Shown: positions 7,188-54,596, counted from the whole stretch's first letter. The stretch: 60,478 nucleotides of DNA, filler included, from 7 parts of 7 records of this genome joined end to end with filler, not necessarily neighbours in it, one strand, 5' to 3'. Numbers and translations: made by a program. The notes: generated by a model not told the origin, from the letters alone.

Positions 7188-7287
7188 NNNNNNNNNNNNN
7201 NNNNNNNNNNNNNNNNNNNNNNNNNNNNNNNTTAATTAATTAANNNNNNNNNNNNNNNNNNNNNNNNNNNNNNNNNNNNNNNNNNNN
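7188..7287. other. Artificial contig spacer
   Basis: 100 nt of N with central TTAATTAATTAA; composition changes across it. Confidence 0.98.
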
Positions 7288-13604: not shown

Positions 13605-13704
13605 NNNNNNNNNNNNNNNNNNNNNNNNNNNNNNNNNNNNNNNNNNNNTTAATTAATTAANNNNNNNNNNNNNNNNNNNNNNNNNNNNNNNNNNNNNNNN
13701 NNNN
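13605..13704. other. Artificial contig spacer
   Basis: N run with TTAATTAATTAA. Confidence 0.98.
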
Positions 13705-15077: not shown

Positions 15078-15947
15078 TTAGTATATGTTTGAGCTTGTAA
15101 GGACCCATTGTAATAGTTCATTGGCGTGCGGAGAAATTTTTGTAGCACAGTTTTCGCAAGGGTTTGCAGACTTACCACCCACAATAGCATTGGCAAAATA
15201 AACATTTGCAGAGCCCGGTTTCCTAAAGTATAGGGGGCTTCCGCTGGAACCTCCACATTGGGTGCCAATATAGTATTGTCGATACTTATCTTCTTTTTCA
15301 AGCTCGTCAATAGATGAGGTCATACCTTCGCCAGACTTATCACTTGAATACCCGCAGCGAACAATAAATCGGGAGGTAAAACCGTAGTTTTCTTCAGCCT
15401 CATCGCTCTCGTAGTGTGGAGGGAGCCACATATTAAAATTTGGGCTGTCTAACCCGAGTCCTGGTATTACAATTGCGCCGATATCGTGTGGGCTGTTCGT
15501 TTCATTATAGTGTCTGCTTTTGAAAAACCTTTTTGAGTGTACAACACCGTATGGGGTCTTGTTGGTATCATGAAGCGCTTGATACACTGTTACGGAGTCA
15601 GCATAAACTTGTCTAACCGCATCGTAGATGCAGTGAGCAGAAGTGAGAATTAGCTTGTTGGTTACCTTAAACCCGGTTGCCCTATAATATGTATCCCCGA
15701 ATTGTATTCTTATATAACAAATCGGATGTACTGTAAGATTTGCCCGATATGACGGGTGCACAGGATGTTTTCTGTTGTCTACGCATCCGCTTTCTGCAAG
15801 AGGGGCAAATTCATCGAAATACCTTTCCTCTATTGGAGGGATAATCCAAATTTCATCAGCTTCATTGGAACCGATAGACAGTATCCTGTCTATACGGTCA
15901 CCACCATTTTCACTGTTATCATCAAAGTTACAATCTGTCTGAAACAT
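15078..15947 (-). CDS. Trypsin-like serine protease (V8/glutamyl-endopeptidase-like)
   Basis: Catalytic triad motifs LTSAHC, HDIG, GGSSGSP. Confidence 0.8.
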   Translation of the reverse strand: MFQTDCNFDDNSENGGDRIDRILSIGSNEADEIWIIPPIEERYFDEFAPLAESGCVDNRKHPVHPSYRANLTVHPICYIRIQFGDTYYRATGFKVTNKLILTSAHCIYDAVRQVYADSVTVYQALHDTNKTPYGVVHSKRFFKSRHYNETNSPHDIGAIVIPGLGLDSPNFNMWLPPHYESDEAEENYGFTSRFIVRCGYSSDKSGEGMTSSIDELEKEDKYRQYYIGTQCGGSSGSPLYFRKPGSANVYFANAIVGGKSANPCENCATKISPHANELLQWVLTSSNIY

Positions 15948-18799: not shown

Positions 18800-18899
18800 N
18801 NNNNNNNNNNNNNNNNNNNNNNNNNNNNNNNNNNNNNNNNNNNTTAATTAATTAANNNNNNNNNNNNNNNNNNNNNNNNNNNNNNNNNNNNNNNNNNNN
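18800..18899. other. Artificial contig spacer
   Basis: N run with TTAATTAATTAA. Confidence 0.98.
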
Positions 18900-18900
18900 T

Positions 18901-18990
18901 TGTCCAAGGCCGACTATAACCAATTGCCCACGACCGACGTTAGCACGTTGCCCACGGCCGACCCTTGCCGGCTGCCCTCGTCCAACATTC
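18901..18990 (+). repeat. 24-bp coding tandem repeat (4 visible units)
   Basis: Units at 18901, 18925, 18949, 18973; the CPRPT codons differ only synonymously (TGT CCA AGG CCG ACT / TGC CCA CGA CCG ACG / TGC CCA CGG CCG ACC / TGC CCT CGT CCA ACA). Confidence 0.92.
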
Positions 18991-19227
18991 TCAGCCGCCA
19001 TGTGTACTCCTCCACCACCAATGATGTATGAGTATGATATGCCTGAGTATTGGGATGATGAGGGATACTATGATTACTATGGTGAGGATGAGTGGTATGG
19101 CATGTATGATGCTGGTGAAGCCGGGTACTGGGAAGATGAGGTGGAGCAGGCTGCTTATGATGAAGAAGAATGGTACGATGATGAAGCCTACGATGAGTGG
19201 GACATAGATGATGAGGAGGAGTGGTAG
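18901..19227 (+). CDS. 5'-truncated putative RiPP precursor/substrate: tandem CPRPTxxx repeats plus acidic-aromatic C-terminal tail
   Basis: The frame of ORF 19000-19227 is open back to the contig edge: CPRPTITN CPRPTLAR CPRPTLAG CPRPTFSAAM CTPPPP MMYEYD...DDEEEW*; directly upstream of kinase/lyase/LanC. Confidence 0.85.
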   Translation, partial: CPRPTITNCPRPTLARCPRPTLAGCPRPTFSAAMCTPPPPMMYEYDMPEYWDDEGYYDYYGEDEWYGMYDAGEAGYWEDEVEQAAYDEEEWYDDEAYDEWDIDDEEEW

Positions 19228-19265
19228 AATTATAATTTCCTACAAAGGAAATGTTAACTACTGTA

Positions 19266-19300
19266 ACCGTGGGCCGTAAAACGCCCGCGGTAATTTTTTT
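19266..19300 (+). terminator. Stem-loop/terminator between precursor and modification genes
   Basis: ACCGTGGGC-loop-GCCCGCGGT (one G-U) followed by AA and T7. Confidence 0.75.
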
Positions 19301-19353
19301 CTGCACATTATCACTGTTTGTAAGGAGAAAGGATCATTTATCCTGCAGAGCTA

Positions 19354-20340
19354 GTGCAATATTTATTGCATAGAAATATCATATCCTCGTCAGAGGTGGT
19401 TGAACGCGGCGTCCAATTATCAGGTGATATACGTGAACGTTCTGTTTTGCAGACTCTTGCCATAGGGGGAGTGCCAGCCTACGTCGTCAAGCAGGCCCGG
19501 GCAGCAGAAACCATGGTAAATATCCATCAGGAATTAAAAGTCTACTCCTGCCTTGAAAAAATACCAGAATTGGATGGCAGTATTCCACCACTGATAGCAG
19601 CAGATGTGGACAGGGGACTGCTGGTGCTTGGCTGGGTAGGAACTGCTGATTTGCAGTATTCTCATATGCCAAAAGATGAAATGTCCAGTATGCTCGGAGC
19701 TTTGACGGGCCAGCTGCATTTTTTAACCAGGGAAGTCGCCGGTCTTAGCGGTATAAGTGAAAGGCCATGGGTATTGTCTTGCCTTGGAAAGAATCCTCGA
19801 TGGCTCCCTGAAGAGTTACCTGAGGTCATAGGACGTGCCTCAAGAGTTGACCTGTTGGAAACTGGATTGCTATATGGGGAGAAGGGCTGGAAGCCGGATG
19901 CTCTTATCCATGGTGACTTGAAGCAAGAGCATTGCCTGCTGGTTGACAATGATGCACAGATTGAACTTTGTCTCATTGATTGGGAACTGGCAGGCTATGG
20001 TGATTCAGCCTGGGATGTAGGCAGTATAATCAGTGACATCCTGTTTGATCGAGGGTATGAGGCGAGTGGTGGTGGATATAGTGCCGCCGAAATCATTGAA
20101 GAGGGAGACATAGGCAATTTTTTCCGTCTCTATAGTCAGCATTGTATGGTAGACAGTGACTTTTTGTACAGGGTAGCATTATTTACCGGCGCTCGCCTCC
20201 TGCAGACAAGTATGGAGTCTGCCGCAGCGTATGGAATGGGAGCATCATCTGGAGTCGACATGCTTGTGTCCATGGCAGAACAAATTTTCAGCGATCCCCA
20301 AGCGTTTGCCCAACTGCTCAGTTATGGAGCAACAGTATGA
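19354..20340 (+). CDS. APH/choline-kinase-fold phosphotransferase, putative LanK-type Ser/Thr kinase
   Basis: YVVKQ (ATP Lys), LIHGDLK, LIDWELAGYGDSAWDVG; ATGA overlap with next gene; true start may be slightly upstream. Confidence 0.85.
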   Translation: MQYLLHRNIISSSEVVERGVQLSGDIRERSVLQTLAIGGVPAYVVKQARAAETMVNIHQELKVYSCLEKIPELDGSIPPLIAADVDRGLLVLGWVGTADLQYSHMPKDEMSSMLGALTGQLHFLTREVAGLSGISERPWVLSCLGKNPRWLPEELPEVIGRASRVDLLETGLLYGEKGWKPDALIHGDLKQEHCLLVDNDAQIELCLIDWELAGYGDSAWDVGSIISDILFDRGYEASGGGYSAAEIIEEGDIGNFFRLYSQHCMVDSDFLYRVALFTGARLLQTSMESAAAYGMGASSGVDMLVSMAEQIFSDPQAFAQLLSYGATV

Positions 20341-21293
20341 GTAGGCAAGCGGGGCGGCTGGATGACCAGGATCAACTGGGTAAAGCACTGATAAAGGCTA
20401 TTGCGTCGGTTGTTCAGCGCTACGGAAATGGCCCGCTTTCAGCGAACAAAGAAGAAAAACAAAAATTGATCAATTTGCTGTATCAATTTTGGTACACTCG
20501 TTCCGAGGGAGAGAAAGATTATCAGTCTTTCTCCCACCCTTTTTGGGATCAGATTTATCGAACTATGCACCAGGGAACCTACCAATGGGAAACCGGGTGG
20601 AAGGTCGATAAAGTTTCCTCAGCGGGAAGAGTTCAGGCTTTTTTGGGTGATGAGGTGCGATTGCTTGATCCTGGCGATTACATCTCTTTGTCTCATCCAG
20701 GATCAATGCCGGCTCCGGGGACTGAGATCGAGGTTGTAGCCCGCCGGGAAGCAACAGAGCCGCAAGAGGGGTTTTGGATCACCCATTCTACTGCCTGGAG
20801 CGGAGTGCAGCCTGTAATAGTTCGTCTTTATTGGAACACTTCTCCAGAGGGCGCTGCCTGTCTTGTTGAACAGATCACTCGATTTATTCCAGATAGCATT
20901 CCTTATAGTTTGAAACTGCCTGTTGATGGAGCTGGTTTCCAGCGTGCAGATGCTGCTGTATTCTACTTTCAGGGAAGTTTTTTTTCCCAGCTGCGACCAC
21001 TGCTGCATGCTGTCCATCGAACCATGCAACCGTATCTCTGGCCTGAGGTACCGGGATTAACCAAAGAGTGTGAACCCGGATTGGGTTTGGCTGAAGATCC
21101 TCTTGAAGAGTTTGAAAGTTTTGGTTTGCATCGCTGTCGTTTGATTGCCGAAGGCGTGCTGTCAGCAACGGCATCTGACTGGCACGACCTGCAGGAGGTC
21201 GGTGCGGTCGTGAAGGCATATTTAGCAACAGCAGGGCTTGATCCTGATCGCCCCTACCTTAACCTCTATGCCAGGACAGATTATGACTGGTAG
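20337..21293 (+). CDS. HopA1-like domain protein, putative LanY-type phosphoSer/Thr lyase
   Basis: VRLYWN, YSLK, RADAAVFY, GLGLAEDP, ESFGLHRCRLIAEG, GLDPDRPYLN pattern of the HopA1 family. Confidence 0.85.
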   Translation: MSRQAGRLDDQDQLGKALIKAIASVVQRYGNGPLSANKEEKQKLINLLYQFWYTRSEGEKDYQSFSHPFWDQIYRTMHQGTYQWETGWKVDKVSSAGRVQAFLGDEVRLLDPGDYISLSHPGSMPAPGTEIEVVARREATEPQEGFWITHSTAWSGVQPVIVRLYWNTSPEGAACLVEQITRFIPDSIPYSLKLPVDGAGFQRADAAVFYFQGSFFSQLRPLLHAVHRTMQPYLWPEVPGLTKECEPGLGLAEDPLEEFESFGLHRCRLIAEGVLSATASDWHDLQEVGAVVKAYLATAGLDPDRPYLNLYARTDYDW

Positions 21294-22638
21294 AACCAAA
21301 TTCCGGCAGCACGTAGTGCAAAGTAATATGAAAGAGCGCGCGTCCTTTTCGAACCTGCGCACTGCAGAAAAGATCGGGCAGCGTCTGGTGCACTCCGCTG
21401 TCTGGCACGATGGGCGGTGTACTTGGACCGGCGATGATGTCAAGCTGATCAACGATGAGTGGCTGGTTATTCATCAAACTGTCGATCCTTATCTTTATTC
21501 TGGTACTGCTGGTATTGCATGGTTTCTTACACTCTGTCATGAGGAAACACATGGTAAGGGGATGAGACGGGCTGCCATCGGTGCAGTTCGACAATCATTG
21601 GCCCTTTTAGAACTTCACGATAACTCTGATTCGTCGTTGGGCTTATATGATGGATTAACAGGGATTGCCCTTGTGGCCTTTGCTGCAGGCCGTCGACTTA
21701 ATGAGCCTCCACTTATTACTGCTGCTCAATTACTTGTCAAAAAGATCAGTGACCGTGTAGAGGCAGAGCAAATAGGCAATGCTGTTGATTTTATTTCCGG
21801 GGCAGCTGGCATTATTACGGGACTTTTACAGATTGCCGGAGAAACCAACGATCGGTCTCTTTACAGGCTGTGTGAAAAAGTGGCGGACCAGTTGTTGAAG
21901 AAGGCACATCACACGAGTTGTGGTATGTATTGGCCCGAAGAAGGACTGCAACGTAACGATATCGGACTATGCGGCATGGCCCATGGCATTTCCGGTGTTG
22001 CCTATGCTCTCATGGAGTTGGCTGCTGTTACCGGTAATGAGTTATATCTGAGGGCTGCTGCCCAGAGTTTATTGTATGAGCGAAGCTGGTTTCATTGTGG
22101 TGAGATTAACTGGCCAGATAATCGTGGCTCCGATGAGACGCAAACATCTGCTGTGGAGCAGGAACTCGTTTATCCAATATATTGGTGTCATGGTGCGGCA
22201 GGGGTAGGGTTAGCCAGGCTGCGCGCCTATCAGTTGACAAGTGATCCGCTTTATCTGGCTGAGGCGACGGCCGCACTGTATGCAAGCTCTCGTTATGCAA
22301 AGCGAATCCTTACTGAGACCAGAAATAAACGACAGCTGTCGCACGATGTCAACATGAGTGTCTGCCATGGTCTTGGCAGCATCATTGAATTGTTTGTATA
22401 TGCATCAACTGTACTGGGAAATGACGAATTCTATCGCCGAGCATGCTCCATCGGTGCGTTTAGTGCCAGAGCTTCGGCCAGGGAACAGGGGAAATGGCGG
22501 TGTGGGATTCAGGATGGTGGGGAGGCGCCTGGATTGATGCTGGGACTGGCAGGTATTGGTTGTACTTTTCTCCAACTTCACAATCCTTCAGGGTTGCGAC
22601 CGGTTGGTCTGATGAACCTCGGCACTGCTTATTGCTAG
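21283..22638 (+). CDS. Stand-alone LanC-like lanthionine cyclase
   Basis: Seven GxxG repeats (LYSGTAG, LYDGLTG, ISGAAG, GMAHGISG, WCHGAAG, CHGLGS, LMLGLAG); Zn ligands in WCHG and CHG and catalytic His of AHG intact; ATG at 21283 overlaps the lyase stop. Confidence 0.9.
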   Translation: MTGRTKFRQHVVQSNMKERASFSNLRTAEKIGQRLVHSAVWHDGRCTWTGDDVKLINDEWLVIHQTVDPYLYSGTAGIAWFLTLCHEETHGKGMRRAAIGAVRQSLALLELHDNSDSSLGLYDGLTGIALVAFAAGRRLNEPPLITAAQLLVKKISDRVEAEQIGNAVDFISGAAGIITGLLQIAGETNDRSLYRLCEKVADQLLKKAHHTSCGMYWPEEGLQRNDIGLCGMAHGISGVAYALMELAAVTGNELYLRAAAQSLLYERSWFHCGEINWPDNRGSDETQTSAVEQELVYPIYWCHGAAGVGLARLRAYQLTSDPLYLAEATAALYASSRYAKRILTETRNKRQLSHDVNMSVCHGLGSIIELFVYASTVLGNDEFYRRACSIGAFSARASAREQGKWRCGIQDGGEAPGLMLGLAGIGCTFLQLHNPSGLRPVGLMNLGTAYC

Positions 22639-22905: not shown

Positions 22906-23754
22906 ATGACTCGACCGCAATTTGTCTCTGTTCATGGTGGTCACAGTGGCCAGTTCTGCAACCATGCCCAGGATTCCCTTGAGGAGATCGTCAAAAAATA
23001 TATCGAGTTTGGTTACAGCTGGGTCGGCATTACAGAGCATGTTCCTGCTATTAATGATGCATTTCTTTATCCTGACGAAGAAGAAGCTGGGCTTTCTGCG
23101 AGCATTCTGAGTAGACGATTTGGAACCTATATCGAAGAGTGTAGACGACTACAAGTCAAATATGCTGATCAGATTTCACTTTATTGTGCAATGGAGATTG
23201 AAACCTATTCTGGTTACGATTCATTTGTTCCTTATCTTTTAGAAACGCATCGACCTGATTATATTGTTGGGTCAATCCACCATGTCGATGACATGGGATT
23301 TGATTATTCAAAAACAAATTATGATAAAACAGCGGAAGCTGTCGGTGGGTATGATAGTTTATACTGCCGGTATTTTGATCAACAATTTGAGATGCTCAAA
23401 CGGTTTAAGCCCTCAGTTGTAGGACACTTTGACCTGATTCGTATCTATGACCCTGACTATAAGAATCGCTTTGAAAAATTGGAAATTAAAAATCGGATCA
23501 TCCGAAATCTTGAACTTGTAAAAAAGTTTGATCTTATTTTGGATTTCAATGTTCGCGCATTATTAAAGGGTGCTGATGAGCCCTATATAACAACTTCAAT
23601 TCTACATCTCGCCCGTGAAATGAACATCTCTGTTGTCCCTGGTGATGATTCCCATGCCATTAAAGATGTACACCAAAATATGGAACAGGCAATAGCATTG
23701 CTCCAAAAAGCTGGTTTCAGTCTACATTGGCCTCAACCAAAGCTTTACCAATAA
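22906..23754 (+). CDS. PHP-family histidinol-phosphatase (HisJ/HisK type)
   Basis: HGGHS..FCNHA, GITEH, DYIVGSIHH, GHFDLI, GDDSH. Confidence 0.85.
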   Translation: MTRPQFVSVHGGHSGQFCNHAQDSLEEIVKKYIEFGYSWVGITEHVPAINDAFLYPDEEEAGLSASILSRRFGTYIEECRRLQVKYADQISLYCAMEIETYSGYDSFVPYLLETHRPDYIVGSIHHVDDMGFDYSKTNYDKTAEAVGGYDSLYCRYFDQQFEMLKRFKPSVVGHFDLIRIYDPDYKNRFEKLEIKNRIIRNLELVKKFDLILDFNVRALLKGADEPYITTSILHLAREMNISVVPGDDSHAIKDVHQNMEQAIALLQKAGFSLHWPQPKLYQ

Positions 23755-23818: not shown

Positions 23819-26122
23819 TTACCTTTTAAATTTCATTTCCTTTCCAGGTTTGCCGTTATCATCTTGTAGAAGTTTGTGTTTTGGATTAGGGCATTTCCAG
23901 TAAAAAAAGGAAGCGTTTTTTGCTGATTGAATCCGTCTTATCTGTTCGTCACACTTTTCATGGGGGCAGGGGGCTTTCGGAGCATTGGGATCGATCATGA
24001 GTTTTCCAGGTTTGCCGTTATCGTCGAGGAGAAGCGGACATCCCTTTTTTTTTCCAGTTGAACAAGCCCAGAAATAATATCCAGGTCTATTGTTACTTTC
24101 CAATCGCATTAAAAAACCGTCTTTGCAGTGAGGGCAAGTCGGGCCAGACGTGGGACGTTCTGAAAATGCGGCACCTGGGGCACCATTATTGTCGGATCTG
24201 GGGGGACAGTTTATTTCTCGTCCGTTGGAACATATCCAGAAAAGTTTTCCTTTGGCTTTTTTCGACTCCATTTGCATCAAATACCCATCGCAAAGGGGGC
24301 AAGCGTATTGTTTGCCGGTGATGAGTTCTGAGAACTGTGTGGCTAAAGCATACTGGACCATTTTGGTCATGCGTCGTGTAAGCTCCTCTAAAAACTCATT
24401 TTTGCCAAGGTTACCTTCACACACCCTATCAAGGGCATCCTCCCAAATTGCGGTCATACCCGGAGATTTGAGGGTAGGATGCATTTTGTCGATTATCTCA
24501 CGACCCCGCTCGGTAGAAATCAGAGATTTACCCTTTTTTTTGAGATACTCTCGTTTTTGCAATTCAGCGATGATGTTTGTCCTGGTTGCAGGTGTGCCGA
24601 TTCCGGAATTCTCTTTGAGCCGGGCTTTGATGACCGGATCGTCAACATATTTATGGACTTGGGTCATCGCAACTTGTAGAGATGCTTCACTAAATCGTGA
24701 TAAAGGCTTAGTAACTTTTTGCTCTTTATCTATTTTTTCTATTGCTGCCGGGTCCCCTTTTGTAACTTTTGGAAGGGGTTTATCTTTTGTCTGTTGGTCA
24801 TTGAGTGTCATCCAGCCGGGATCTTTGACCGTAATTCCTTTGGCTCGCCAATGTTCATCAAGACAATCGACTAAAATGTTGGTGGAGTAGTATTGATAGT
24901 CTGGGAAAAACTGCTTCAAAAACCGGATTGCGACCAGCTTGTATATATTTTGTTCTTCCTCTGTTAAATCCCTGGGAATTACTTCTGTCGGAATAATGCC
25001 GTGATGAGCCTCTGCCCCCTGTTTTTTAGTATTCCAGGCGGGGGAGCACAGTGACGGATTCGCTAAGTCGGCACCGGCAATACCTTGCTTGGTCAGTGCT
25101 GCGATAACCCGCGGTGCATCCTCGTGCATTTCATCGGGCAGGTATCTGCACTCGGTTCTCATGTACGTGAGACACTTCTTTTTTTCATACAGTCCCTGAC
25201 CAATTTCCAAGGTCTGTTTCGGGGCATACCCGAATTTATCTTCAGCCTTTTTTTGCAGATCTGACAGCATAAAGGGAAGTGGAGGACTCTTTTTTTTCAG
25301 CGTCTGTTTTCGATCTTTGATGATCCCAGAGCTGGCAGTCAGTCGTTCAATGAGCTGGTTTGCTGCTTTTTCATCGACGAGACGGCCTTCCGGGTCGACT
25401 CCCCTTGCAAGCTCTCCTGGTTCCCAGGTAGCTATAAAATTTCCGTTTTGGTGGTTAACCGTGGCTTTTAATAACCAATACGGTTTTTTAACAAATTGTT
25501 CAATTTCCCGGTCACGGTCGACAACCAAAGAAAGGGTCGGCGTCTGGACTCTTCCTGCCGAGAGAACCGTGCCTCTGGTTCTGGCGGCAAGGGTTAATCC
25601 TCGCGTAACATTTAACCCTACAAGCCAGTCTGCATTCGCCCTGCAGATAGCCGCATTTTTGATATTTAAAAATTCCTGGTTGTCACGTAATTTTTGAAAC
25701 CCTTTTGCAATGGTTCGTTTATCGAGAGCCGATATCCATAGTCTCTTAGCCGGCCCTGTATATTCAAGGTAATCGAGAACTTCATCGACAATTAATTGTC
25801 CTTCTCTTTCTGGGTCACCGGCATTAATGACGTCAGTTGCTTTGTTAAGCAGATACCTGATAATGGTTAGCTGTTTTTGTGTTCTTGCAATGGGCTCTTT
25901 TATCCATTTTTGGGGAATTATGGGTAAATCTTCTGCTCGCCATTGTCTATATTTCTCATCATAAATATGCGGCTGGGCTTGTTCTAGGATATGGCCTACA
26001 CACCAAGTGCAGACGACATTTTGTTTGCAGTTGATAAATCCATCCCCTTGGTGAGCAATACCAAAATAGTGAGCAAGGTCCCTGGCAACGGATGGCTTTT
26101 CAGCAATTAAGAGTGTGGTCAT
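23819..26122 (-). CDS. topB: DNA topoisomerase III with C-terminal Zn-ribbon repeats
   Basis: IAEKPSVA TOPRIM, AGDPEREGQ, SAGRVQTPTL, LTYMRTE (catalytic Tyr), GIGTPATR; three Cys-rich repeats ending DxNGxPG. Confidence 0.92.
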   Translation of the reverse strand: MTTLLIAEKPSVARDLAHYFGIAHQGDGFINCKQNVVCTWCVGHILEQAQPHIYDEKYRQWRAEDLPIIPQKWIKEPIARTQKQLTIIRYLLNKATDVINAGDPEREGQLIVDEVLDYLEYTGPAKRLWISALDKRTIAKGFQKLRDNQEFLNIKNAAICRANADWLVGLNVTRGLTLAARTRGTVLSAGRVQTPTLSLVVDRDREIEQFVKKPYWLLKATVNHQNGNFIATWEPGELARGVDPEGRLVDEKAANQLIERLTASSGIIKDRKQTLKKKSPPLPFMLSDLQKKAEDKFGYAPKQTLEIGQGLYEKKKCLTYMRTECRYLPDEMHEDAPRVIAALTKQGIAGADLANPSLCSPAWNTKKQGAEAHHGIIPTEVIPRDLTEEEQNIYKLVAIRFLKQFFPDYQYYSTNILVDCLDEHWRAKGITVKDPGWMTLNDQQTKDKPLPKVTKGDPAAIEKIDKEQKVTKPLSRFSEASLQVAMTQVHKYVDDPVIKARLKENSGIGTPATRTNIIAELQKREYLKKKGKSLISTERGREIIDKMHPTLKSPGMTAIWEDALDRVCEGNLGKNEFLEELTRRMTKMVQYALATQFSELITGKQYACPLCDGYLMQMESKKAKGKLFWICSNGREINCPPRSDNNGAPGAAFSERPTSGPTCPHCKDGFLMRLESNNRPGYYFWACSTGKKKGCPLLLDDNGKPGKLMIDPNAPKAPCPHEKCDEQIRRIQSAKNASFFYWKCPNPKHKLLQDDNGKPGKEMKFKR

Positions 26123-26643: not shown

Positions 26644-28392
26644 TTATTTTGCCTGAGGTTTATTGTAGGTTGTAGGACCATTCACCCAGGAAGTGGTTTT
26701 TAACCATTCCTGCGGGTAACCAACTTTGTGGTTTAATTCTCCAGGGTAATTCATCCCGCCATCAGCGTATTTTACGATGAGCCTATCTGCAAAGTTCTGC
26801 CAGGTTTCAAATACGTTTTGTGCTGTATTTACGCTGAACTCTGTGAGGTAGGCAGTGGCAGCTGCAGGGTTCTGGTTAAAGAGAGAAAGGGCCTCTTTAT
26901 CTGCTTGGGCGACTGCTTGAAAATGTTTTTTTTCAAGCGGATCACGCACATCAACGATGTCCTGATGTACTCCCGAATAGTTGATGGCAGCCCAATTCTC
27001 GACAAAATTAAAAGCCCAAAAGGCGGAATCTCTGGTGTAATACCTGGGGTCAGCAGTAGAATATGGTTCTGCAACTTTTGTAGCTCCCACATAGAAAGGC
27101 GTATAAGCTGTTTCCGAAGGCTTTGACAGGCCAAACCAGAGAAGACCGCCGATCGCATCTGGCAACCAAGAGCGACCCTCGCAGATAAAGGAATAGGTGC
27201 AGTAATATACCGAGAGTGGGCGCTGCCATGCCCCATCATGGTGTGCCTTTGGATCTGCCACATCACCTGCCGATTCATAAGGGCCCAGGTAACGATATGG
27301 CACTCCAAATGGACCGGAAGCAACGCCTTTGGTCATGTCGAACTCAGTTCCCTCATAATGGTCACGAAGTAAATGCAGTACCTCATGGCGCGTTACTTTA
27401 TGATCCGGGGTAATGGTTAATGGGTAGTCTCTGGTATATCCATCCTTGACCCAGGGGCTGAGATTCATTGAAGGCGCAAGCCTATCCATTACGCGCCATA
27501 CCCTGCGTAAAGAGTAATAAGGGTGATTGTATTCGCCAAGGCTCGCTGCACGGAGCCAGTCTAGCTGGCCATCTTCCTGTTTCCACCAGCCTTTTTCCTG
27601 GGCGACCTTATGCAGATTGGGGCTAAATAATTGATCAGGATTATTTGGATCAATGTCGCGGATGCGGAGCTCATTAGCACTCACCACCATCTCACCATCG
27701 GGTATTCTTTGGGCTACCCACAAGCCGCCAAAGGTGTCATCGCCGGGAATCATTTCAATCAACCAACCTTCTTTGGGGTCAGCAACCGGCAGCGTCTCGC
27801 CGGTTCCATGGAACCCATAGGTGTCGATTAAATGGCCTATCAGCTCAACTGCTTCACGGGCAGTTTTACATCTCTCTAACGCTACACGAGCAAGTTCCGC
27901 ACTATAAAAAAGGTGCTTGGGAGAGGGTTTTACATTACCCAATTTGGTTCCATTGGTACACTCACCGAACATAAGCTGATGTTCGTTCATAATACCGTAG
28001 TTGCCATCATAATATGCATATGTGTGCGCAACCTGAGGGATGAAACCAACAGGCTTTGATTGCGGAACTTGCGCATTCACGTACCCTGGCCCCCGGTCTT
28101 TGCCGGTATAGCGGCGAAAGACAAAACTGCCGTATTCTGGTAATTCCCCAATGGAAGTTGCATCAAAATAAACTGGGCGCATGGAGCCAGGCTGGTGGTC
28201 TGCAGCAGGGACGTAAATAAGGCGTGGGTCGTTTAAGTGACCATCATCACTATGGCCGACATACATAGCTCCACTCTTTGTGGCTCCAGGTGTAATAATA
28301 AAGGTGGTACAGGCCAGTGATTGAGAAGTAAACAGCAGACTTGTAACCAGGGTTGTAGCGATGTGCCATTTTTTCACCATGTGCTTCCTCAT
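26644..28392 (-). CDS. Secreted peptidase C69 family dipeptidase (Ntn-hydrolase)
   Basis: Signal peptide ending SLA then CTTF N-terminal nucleophile; IMNEHQL, LERCKTAREA, ANELRI, RRVWR, LRDHYEGTEFD. Confidence 0.88.
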   Translation of the reverse strand: MRKHMVKKWHIATTLVTSLLFTSQSLACTTFIITPGATKSGAMYVGHSDDGHLNDPRLIYVPAADHQPGSMRPVYFDATSIGELPEYGSFVFRRYTGKDRGPGYVNAQVPQSKPVGFIPQVAHTYAYYDGNYGIMNEHQLMFGECTNGTKLGNVKPSPKHLFYSAELARVALERCKTAREAVELIGHLIDTYGFHGTGETLPVADPKEGWLIEMIPGDDTFGGLWVAQRIPDGEMVVSANELRIRDIDPNNPDQLFSPNLHKVAQEKGWWKQEDGQLDWLRAASLGEYNHPYYSLRRVWRVMDRLAPSMNLSPWVKDGYTRDYPLTITPDHKVTRHEVLHLLRDHYEGTEFDMTKGVASGPFGVPYRYLGPYESAGDVADPKAHHDGAWQRPLSVYYCTYSFICEGRSWLPDAIGGLLWFGLSKPSETAYTPFYVGATKVAEPYSTADPRYYTRDSAFWAFNFVENWAAINYSGVHQDIVDVRDPLEKKHFQAVAQADKEALSLFNQNPAAATAYLTEFSVNTAQNVFETWQNFADRLIVKYADGGMNYPGELNHKVGYPQEWLKTTSWVNGPTTYNKPQAK

Positions 28393-28493: not shown

Positions 28494-28593
28494 NNNNNNN
28501 NNNNNNNNNNNNNNNNNNNNNNNNNNNNNNNNNNNNNTTAATTAATTAANNNNNNNNNNNNNNNNNNNNNNNNNNNNNNNNNNNNNNNNNNNN
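28494..28593. other. Artificial contig spacer
   Basis: N run with TTAATTAATTAA. Confidence 0.98.
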
Positions 28594-48447: not shown

Positions 48448-48547
48448 NNNNNNNNNNNNNNNNNNNNNNNNNNNNNNNNNNNNNNNNNNNNTTAATTAAT
48501 TAANNNNNNNNNNNNNNNNNNNNNNNNNNNNNNNNNNNNNNNNNNNN
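48448..48547. other. Artificial contig spacer
   Basis: N run with TTAATTAATTAA. Confidence 0.98.
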
Positions 48548-54496: not shown

Positions 54497-54596
54497 NNNN
54501 NNNNNNNNNNNNNNNNNNNNNNNNNNNNNNNNNNNNNNNNTTAATTAATTAANNNNNNNNNNNNNNNNNNNNNNNNNNNNNNNNNNNNNNNNNNNN
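54497..54596. other. Artificial contig spacer
   Basis: N run with TTAATTAATTAA. Confidence 0.98.

Follow-up and report, generated by a model that had tools for sequence, protein, structure and literature searches.

A predicted class-Vb-type lanthionine synthetase operon and its candidate protease-borne repeat substrate in a Desulfobacterota-like contig

We describe a putative lanthionine-synthesis locus at positions 18901–22638 of a 60,478-nucleotide (nt) stretch of DNA, hereafter the window, in which the end of a threonine/cysteine repeat gene is followed by genes for an APH-fold kinase, a HopA1-fold lyase and a stand-alone LanC cyclase. The window comprises seven contigs joined by N44-TTAATTAATTAA-N44 spacers, and the guanine-plus-cytosine content of the individual contigs runs from 25 to 49%, so that only the contig at 18900–28493 is relevant to this locus; the seven joined pieces may belong to different organisms, and features should be kept separate across spacers. 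On our best reading of the sequence, a protease-substrate gene, of which the locus retains the 3′ end, is followed by a predicted class-Vb-type three-enzyme lanthionine synthetase operon. Its features are the following.

18901–19005, + strand: last four complete Thr/Cys units (CPRPT-x3, closing ...FSAAMC), from translation, synonymous variation and tblastn to L081
19006–19227, + strand: acidic/aromatic tail and stop codon, from tail alignment and charge balance in relatives
19230–19257, + strand: first spacer hairpin, from the RNA fold of 19225–19353
19266–19301, + strand: terminator-like hairpin and T7 run, from stem-loop analysis and RNA fold
19354–20340, + strand: predicted LanK-type APH-fold Ser/Thr kinase, 328 amino acids (aa), GTG start (Pfam APH, 2.4e-12)
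20337–21293, + strand: predicted LanY-type HopA1-fold phospho-Thr lyase, 318 aa (Pfam HopA1 PF17914, 3.8e-27)
21268–22638, + strand: predicted stand-alone LanC cyclase (Pfam LANC_like, 7.9e-57), with ATG 21268 taken as the start

The repeat gene and the three enzyme genes

The repeat open reading frame (ORF; 18901–19227) lacks its 5′ end: it comprises the final 108 codons of a longer gene that runs off the contig edge, where base 18900 directly follows a spacer. Read from 18901, the frame gives CPRPTITN, CPRPTLAR, CPRPTLAG and CPRPTFSAAM-C-TPPPP and then the tail, with the stop codon at 19225–19227. Among the five codons of CPRPT, 21 of 30 pairwise codon comparisons differ, all 21 synonymously and none non-synonymously, which argues that the repeat frame is under protein-level selection and is not a chance DNA repeat. 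The ORF is 49.5% identical (tblastn, E 7e-16) to residues 542–640 of the subtilase-repeat protein of locus L081, and its tail aligns at 67% identity with that of protein P0035. This tail confirms the acidic C-terminus claimed in an earlier, preliminary description of the locus: it holds 31 D/E, no K/R and 19 aromatic residues (Y/W/F) among 73, for a net charge of −31, and carries the conserved end motif EEEWYD..YDEWDIDD..W. Among sequencing runs, no RNA run carrying the sequence was listed; a single DNA run was, which may be the source sample. Logan unitigs of this run cover 18900–20400 in seven pieces of 34–2389 nt, none of them spanning, and fragment exactly at 18900–19070; we therefore take the contig start to be an assembly break in the repeats. 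At 18939, the unitigs have one 21-nt loose end, which was left unused as it would put the ORF out of frame.

Between the stop codon of the repeat gene and the kinase gene lies a 126-nt spacer that holds two hairpins and no ORF. The second of these (19266–19291) has 9 pairs, 7 of them G-C, followed by a T7 run, and the 129 nt at 19225–19353 fold at −37.8 kcal/mol (z = −3.75; 0 of 200 shuffles equally stable), in agreement with the stem-loop that had been described behind the repeat gene. Placed between substrate and enzyme genes, the hairpin at 19266–19301 probably serves as an attenuator or as a terminator that allows some read-through.

The enzyme families, the overlapping gene ends and the intact LanC motifs set out in the preliminary description all stand. 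The stop codon of the kinase gene (TGA) and the start codon of the lyase gene (ATG) share bases in the ATGA at 20337–20340, and both ATG candidates for the LanC start (21268 and 21283; TTG 21238 is a further alternative) precede the lyase stop at 21291–21293. Kinase residues K46, E60, H186-G-D188-x-K190 and D209-W-E211 are invariant in 8/8 relatives. In the cyclase, His239, W-C307-H308-G and C366-H367-G are invariant in 12/12 aligned LanC proteins; by analogy with NisC, these residues would include the Cys-Cys-His zinc ligands and the catalytic His. Across 16 relatives of the lyase, R163, K193 and R203 never vary and Y210 is almost invariant. According to the available text of PMC9486802, mutagenesis showed the CaoY residues R187/K219/R229/Y236 to matter for phosphate elimination; the window residues are spaced 30/10/7 and those of CaoY 32/10/7, a comparison of spacing only. 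A predicted complex of kinase, lyase and the 108-residue ORF product scored 0.02 against a mark of 0.34 with alignments unused, and speaks neither for nor against binding. A known anti-phage system was considered and dropped, since in PADLOC none of the three enzymes gave a match and the sole result was a generic one to subtilases (1.2e-15).

Substrate architecture in related loci

Related loci were fetched with an alignment of the lyase and its relatives (a scan with the single lyase protein gave no relative). Kinase, lyase and cyclase occur in this order in 79 of the 116 fetched loci; of the other 37, a contig end truncates 30, and 7 lack one hit despite having sufficient sequence. Some loci are copies or near-copies (L025 equals L083; L002 is close to L003, and L007, L008 and L009 to one another). 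The lyase has 15 close relatives (42–79% identity, E ≤ 7e-68), beyond which the next match falls to 2e-33.

All ten close loci that reach upstream of the kinase (L002–L010 and L081, near-copies L002/L003 and L007/L008/L009 included) have directly before it a Thr/Cys gene that ends like the window ORF, which upholds the proposal that the repeat ORF is the likely substrate; L001 stops short of this region. In nine of the ten, this gene encodes a subtilisin-like protein of 623–796 aa where whole, with a pro-region, an S8 domain, 9–24 Thr/Cys units and an aromatic tail, acidic in most. S8 matches in Pfam range from 1e-28 to 1e-31 (L002, L006, L007, L010 and L081), and the DSG, HG, GN and GTS motifs of the relatives (Asp, His, Asn, Ser) align to subtilisin BPN′. 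The preliminary description of a repeat gene was thus right about the Thr/Cys repeats themselves and probably wrong in treating the gene as free-standing, the repeats being the C-terminal part of a protease in relatives.

The same kind of array occurs behind two other protease folds. In L004, units of the same kind and an acidic end follow a caspase-fold domain, modelled with AlphaFold2 from 60 sequences at a predicted local distance difference test (pLDDT) score of 92.9, for which Foldseek retrieves SAVED-CHAT (4.9e-7), gingipain R (1.8e-6), caspases and separase; its family has a near-invariant His-Gly and an invariant Cys. In L013, a trypsin-like domain with a GDSGS motif precedes Cys/Thr units, with weak domain support (Nal1_C at 1.5e-5, below the Pfam cut-off; protein-atlas scores of 0.98 to S1/NAL1 clusters). 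A quick maximum-likelihood tree built from 105 lyases places the 10 protease-linked rows and L013, which groups with the close lyases, on one side of a branch with a Shimodaira–Hasegawa-like approximate likelihood-ratio test (SH-aLRT) value of 100.

Across these relatives we recognize a conserved five-gene module consisting of a small pro-region paralogue, the protease-repeat-tail gene, kinase, lyase and cyclase. The small gene upstream of the subtilase is 37% identical to the pro-region over 87 residues (E 3e-16, L081) and may encode an inhibitor or chaperone of the protease. Neither the repeat regions nor this small ORF matched a Pfam or NCBIfam family. It was located as follows.

L081, 329–637: small pro-region paralogue
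L002, 3904–4233: small pro-region paralogue
L006, 3481–3918: small pro-region paralogue
L007, 4373–4894: small pro-region paralogue
L010, 4333–4830: small pro-region paralogue

The genes flanking the module vary among loci. An IS1595-family transposase lies beside it in L007 (10390–11319) and a RepA-like plasmid replication protein near it in L010 (320–1171), neighbours that hint at mobility of the five-gene module between genomes.

To survey the protease family, the subtilase part of L081 was used as a query, giving 1,577 matches among 8,000 scored candidates, the best 120 of which were classified. These 120 are all at least 62% identical to the query, save two Bacillus-type tandem-S8 proteins at 49–50%, and include dozens of 90%-identity clusters of repeat-bearing subtilases. 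Ninety-five could be classified, 25 lacking the anchor motif, and 67 of the 95 carry at least six units (two of these 67 are long Bacillus-type proteins, probably false). In 65 repeat subtilases, the extensions contain 821 Cys; only 5 inter-Cys segments are without Ser/Thr and 483 have exactly one. Each unit therefore offers one hydroxyl residue and one thiol, which is the requirement for tandem methyllanthionine rings. The residues most often seen around the unit Thr are Pro (−3 and −1), Arg (−2, 45%) and Leu (+1), the common form being [P/C]-R-P-T-hydrophobic (C-P-R-P-T in the window), and the distance from Thr to the next Cys is mostly 3–6 residues. Arrays open with a Thr unit that lacks a preceding Cys (e.g. 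...IVRPTLVGPRC) and close with ...FSAAMC, later units running from Cys to Cys; because they start with such a Thr and finish in Cys, rings from Thr to the downstream Cys would be favoured. In an AlphaFold2 model of full-length P0035, the pro-region and subtilase are confident and the repeats and tail fall below a pLDDT of 50 from residue 474 onwards, as expected for an accessible, peptide-like substrate region.

Furthermore, the charges of repeats and tail are matched. In the 65 repeat subtilases, the higher the net positive charge on the array, the higher the net negative charge on the tail (Spearman 0.94), and a regression over 61 proteins (alignment A6, with P0056 set aside for its net positive tail) gives a slope of 1.11, an intercept of −0.1, r of 0.94 and a mean absolute difference of 1.9 over a range of 3 to 46 charges. 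Since relatedness inflates such a correlation, nearest neighbours were paired: charge differences still correlate over the 30 pairs (Pearson 0.76), and in the 26 pairs that differ in repeat charge the tail shifts the same way in 20, the opposite way in 4 and not at all in 2. The balance extends to the other folds (+15/−15 in the caspase-fold L004, +3/−4 in the trypsin-like L013). For the window, a tail of net −31 would predict about +28 for the full array, or roughly 15–20 units.

Subtilase and caspase-fold families also carry other C-terminal modules, namely a Cys-free RD-x-x-T region with a coiled coil, Ricin lectin, FG-GAP and Beta/gamma-crystallin. The Cys-free tail type consists of RD-x-x-T / PRLD repeats, a motif resembling RPFVLxTPHH and a C-terminal coiled coil, and is found on both families (subtilases P0074, P0082, P0100 and P0102; caspase-fold P0278), as if the tails were exchangeable cassettes. 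This variety suggests that the proteases can take up different accessory modules, the stapled array among them, with targeting, anchoring or regulation as the likely purpose, and it argues against the units being the only substrate of the protease.

Distant triads and the surroundings of the contig

More distant triads, from Undibacterium and other Burkholderiales, Bryobacteraceae, other Acidobacteriota, Chloroflexota and Myxococcota, likewise follow Cys/Thr/Pro-rich repeat ORFs of 250–800 codons with up to 75 Cys. Of the 62 loci whose upstream sequence is long enough, 33 have an ORF there with 15 or more Thr/Ser-x(1–8)-Cys units, compared to 0 of 42 controls (the same-sized region 3′ of LanC). 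The ORF counted for L104 is probably read in the wrong frame, and a threshold of at least 6 units proved too lax (17 of 37 controls positive). Outside Actinomycetota, this enzyme set therefore seems generally to act on long repeat substrates. The distant repeat precursors have no acidic tail, and many are headed by a conserved domain of about 110 residues (FVxKxVxDPxxPPxxxxLxGYxGxSxEEGxxRLY...), which gave no match in Pfam or NCBIfam, sometimes occupies a small ORF of its own that has just one core, and is probably a leader or recognition domain.

L014, 5725–6489: ~110-residue N-terminal domain
L023, 119–1930: ~110-residue N-terminal domain
L025, 4450–4911: ~110-residue N-terminal domain
L109, 4469–4987: ~110-residue N-terminal domain
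L082, 4114–6501: very large Cys/Thr/Pro repeat ORF upstream of the triad
L025/L083, 4960–6306: very large Cys/Thr/Pro repeat ORF upstream of the triad
L051, 5316–6659: very large Cys/Thr/Pro repeat ORF upstream of the triad
L086, 4852–6609: very large Cys/Thr/Pro repeat ORF upstream of the triad

The very large ORFs contain 46–75 Cys in L082, L025/L083 and L051 and 37 in L086, and the hosts of the distant triads include Burkholderiales and Bryobacteraceae, among them cultured Undibacterium strains (L088, L091, L093, L095–L097 and L109) that would be usable experimentally.

The lineage proposed for the host, Desulfobacterota-like, is borne out for this contig by its topoisomerase III, which shares 80% identity with the Desulfogranum mediterraneum enzyme and 68–69% with those of Desulfosediminicola and Desulforhopalus. 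The three genes that follow the triad on the contig are not conserved beside the module in relatives.

22906–23754: PHP-domain protein
23819–26122, − strand: topoisomerase III
26644–28392, − strand: C69 peptidase
7188–7287, 13605–13704, 18800–18899, 28494–28593, 48448–48547 and 54497–54596: spacers between contigs

On the adjoining contig, we noted by eye an ORF with the trypsin-like motifs TSAHC ... GGSSGSP (15078–15947, − strand) and a chemoreceptor-like ORF cut by the contig end (17812–18799, + strand).

Interpretation and comparison with known systems

From the enzyme families, their intact catalytic motifs, the synteny, the one Thr and one Cys per unit and the charge balance, all directly observed, we infer the following chemistry. 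The kinase would phosphorylate the single Thr of each unit, the lyase would remove the phosphate by elimination to leave dehydrobutyrine, and LanC would add the thiol of the next Cys, 3–8 residues downstream. The result would be a string of back-to-back, non-overlapping methyllanthionine rings in a disordered C-terminal region, with about 15–20 expected in the product of the window gene, four units of which are visible. The acidic/aromatic tail could then act as a stoichiometric counter-ion that keeps the array soluble and harmless in the producer, or holds it until the tail is cleaved. We consider it reasonably likely, judging from these sequence patterns, that tandem methyllanthionine rings are installed in a disordered protease tail, with the acidic end serving to mask the positive charge of the stapled array. 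The rings would probably be placed in a full-sized protein and not in a small peptide; since the array is a C-terminal extension of a full protease in relatives, we regard the product as a stapled protein module as opposed to a classical leader-core peptide.

Several observations weigh against this interpretation. The 5′ part of the window gene is absent and its closest relative, L001 (79%), likewise has no upstream sequence, so that the protease fusion at this locus is presumed from the other relatives; nor does a second subtilase piece occur elsewhere in the window. The kinase falls short of the NCBIfam model LxmK (NF038156; 40 bits against a cut-off of 315) and is a distant relative of LxmK and not its equivalog, while in NCBIfam the cyclase lies below the curated cut-off and the lyase is without any match. 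Neither a signal peptide nor a conserved transporter was seen in the loci of the relatives. Ring direction is argued from the array ends only, and the spacing from Cys to Thr is regular too (mode 4). The charge balance fails in P0032/L081 (+20/−40) and in P0056, with its net positive tail. Finally, among the 95 classified subtilases, 11 have the Cys-free 'type B' tail, 6 are short and 11 are other, at 62–82% identity; because the same family occurs with a Cys-free tail or none, the protease would have a role that needs no rings.

A different function of the tail, that of a docking element (a C-terminal 'follower') which recruits the kinase, lyase and cyclase as leader peptides do elsewhere and is not chiefly a charge mask, is possible, if somewhat doubtful. 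The tail and repeats are the only parts common to the S8, caspase-fold and trypsin-like substrates of the clade, the end motif is conserved (EEWY..Y[DE][DE]WD[IL]D..W), and distant triads without the acidic tail have the conserved N-terminal domain of about 110 aa instead; class V kinases, moreover, bind the leader, as stated in the accessible part of PMC12328550. A docking motif would not, however, predict that tail and repeat charges track each other one for one over 3 to 46 charges. Docking and masking are compatible, and docking is better viewed as a refinement than as an exclusive rival.

The main rival is a multi-core precursor, of the kind known among peptides that are made on the ribosome and modified after translation (RiPPs), that is cut by its own protease: the array would be cleaved, for instance at a conserved Arg, to release many small cyclic methyllanthionine peptides, the protein serving as their delivery form. 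We judge this unlikely. It would account for tandem units that are nearly identical (e.g. eleven 11-residue NPRDPRC[I/V]RPT units in L002), for Arg at fixed positions, notably −2 of the Thr, and for three unrelated protease folds being fused to the same kind of array, one with Arg-specific gingipain R among its top matches; subtilisin-type proteases are also usual in lanthipeptide maturation, going by the available portions of PMC5812297 and PMC10885120. The 62–82% identical subtilases with Cys-free or no tail and the caspase-fold family with lectin-type modules nevertheless point to other protease substrates. Unit length also varies inside one protein, with no separate conserved cleavage site between rings, and the exact charge match by a single tail fits an intact array better, release still being compatible with it.

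Very unlikely is that the repeats are not the substrate at all, their Cys binding metal or forming disulfides in a stalk and the triad acting on an unseen small peptide or on thiol-capped dehydro residues (eukaryotic LanC-like proteins reportedly cap dehydro residues with a small thiol, in a 2021 Cell paper on LanCL): the subtilase family does exist without the hallmark repeats and short ORFs are not excludable by eye, but the repeat gene adjoins the kinase in all ten close loci with upstream sequence where other flanking genes vary, Thr and Cys are one-to-one in 65 proteins, distant triads also lie behind repeat ORFs (33 of 62, against 0 of 42 controls), the spacer between precursor and kinase in the window holds hairpins and no ORF, and the arrays swap among three protease folds yet remain with one lyase clade.

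The preferred interpretation, a protease tail stapled by tandem rings and masked by its acidic end, can be extended to an 'activatable polycation', which we offer as a speculation with low odds of being right. Here, a stapled, Arg-rich and protease-resistant tail of 8–24 rings, kept inert in the producer by the acidic end of exactly equal charge, would be unmasked by the fused protease to bind a target surface such as membrane, cell wall or nucleic acid, the pro-region and the small upstream paralogue restraining the protease (of subtilisin, caspase or trypsin fold) until then. If true, lanthionine chemistry would yield a protein-scale weapon or anchor and not a small antibiotic.

The known setting of lanthionine rings is the short peptide that is cleaved from its leader. 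If the preferred interpretation holds, this chemistry would staple the tails of full-sized enzymes in many uncultured bacteria, widening the range of lanthipeptide substrates. Its design rule could be read off the sequence, with a single Thr and a single Cys in each unit and a tail whose charge equals that of the repeats, and it would expose a blind spot of genome mining, in which searches near HopA1/LanC enzymes consider short ORFs only. The enzymes might tolerate 8–24 tandem sites on a folded fusion partner, a property useful for peptide and protein stapling, and the charge-matched tail provides a testable idea for the safe cellular handling of a highly cationic product.

The architecture, which the preliminary description did not recognize from described clusters, is in part a published one: the set of LanK (PF01636), LanY (PF17914) and stand-alone LanC is "class Vb" lanthipeptide synthesis, whose sole characterised member is given as mSmoA from Streptomyces, credited to Pei et al. 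(JACS 2022), in the available text of PMC11186320, PMC12291118 and PMC12328550. A literature search, outside of which Pei et al. 2022 and supplementary datasets lay, turned up no paper in which HopA1/LanC enzymes are connected with a protease or a long repeat protein, so that an earlier mention is possible. The enzymes are class Vb-like, and the substrate architecture and charge rule appear new. Both this locus and the Smo system (SmoK/SmoY/SmoC) have a separate APH-fold kinase, a HopA1-fold lyase and a zinc LanC, with presumably the same chemistry. As far as the same sources describe it, the Smo system is actinobacterial and places overlapping 'stapled' rings in a short precursor. The host here is Desulfobulbales-like, and the predicted substrate is a protease tail that ends in an acidic stretch and has numerous units in tandem without overlap, the substrates of the relatives being 426–800 aa long with a protease domain, unlike a short precursor made of an N-terminal leader and a C-terminal core.

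Eyles et al. 2021 placed 20% of 1,340 HopA1 proteins near, or fused to, LanC and, in the available text, looked only for short peptides near the bait using RiPPER (PMC8153245), so that long repeat proteins would go unreported. Apparently fused lyase-cyclase ORFs are also present among our loci, with lyase and cyclase hits in one stop-to-stop ORF in eight (L019, L071, L092, L099, L106, L107, L108 and L116), which fits the HopA1-LanC fusions of that study; kinase and lyase hits share one stop-to-stop ORF in three others (L060, L070 and L074).

Class Va lanthipeptides and thioamitides (CaoK/CaoY, LxmK/LxmY, TsaC/TsaD) resemble the present system in using a split kinase and HopA1-type lyase as the dehydratase; they differ in being without LanC, in having LanD/LanX make aminovinyl-methyl-cysteine (AviMeCys), and in acting on short leader-core peptides in Actinomycetota. 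LanP-type S8 leader peptidases such as NisP are likewise S8 proteases encoded in a lanthionine cluster. LanP is a separate, secreted, leader-removing enzyme, whereas here the protease and ring region form one polypeptide with no visible signal peptide, and some members of the family to which the S8 domain belongs have no Cys repeats at all.

Multi-core or enzyme-fused RiPP precursors, such as the cyanobactin precursor PatE with PatA/PatG, fungal Kex2-cut repeats and the borosin OphMA, share either the tandem modifiable units or the combination of enzyme and substrate in one chain. To our knowledge, no such precursor couples a protease to lanthionine units or bears a charge-matched acidic tail. 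The masking of a polycation by an equal polyanion in the same chain is familiar from the anionic pro-pieces of pro-defensins and from engineered activatable cell-penetrating peptides; this likeness is one of design only, with a protease as the likely trigger, and involves no sequence relation.

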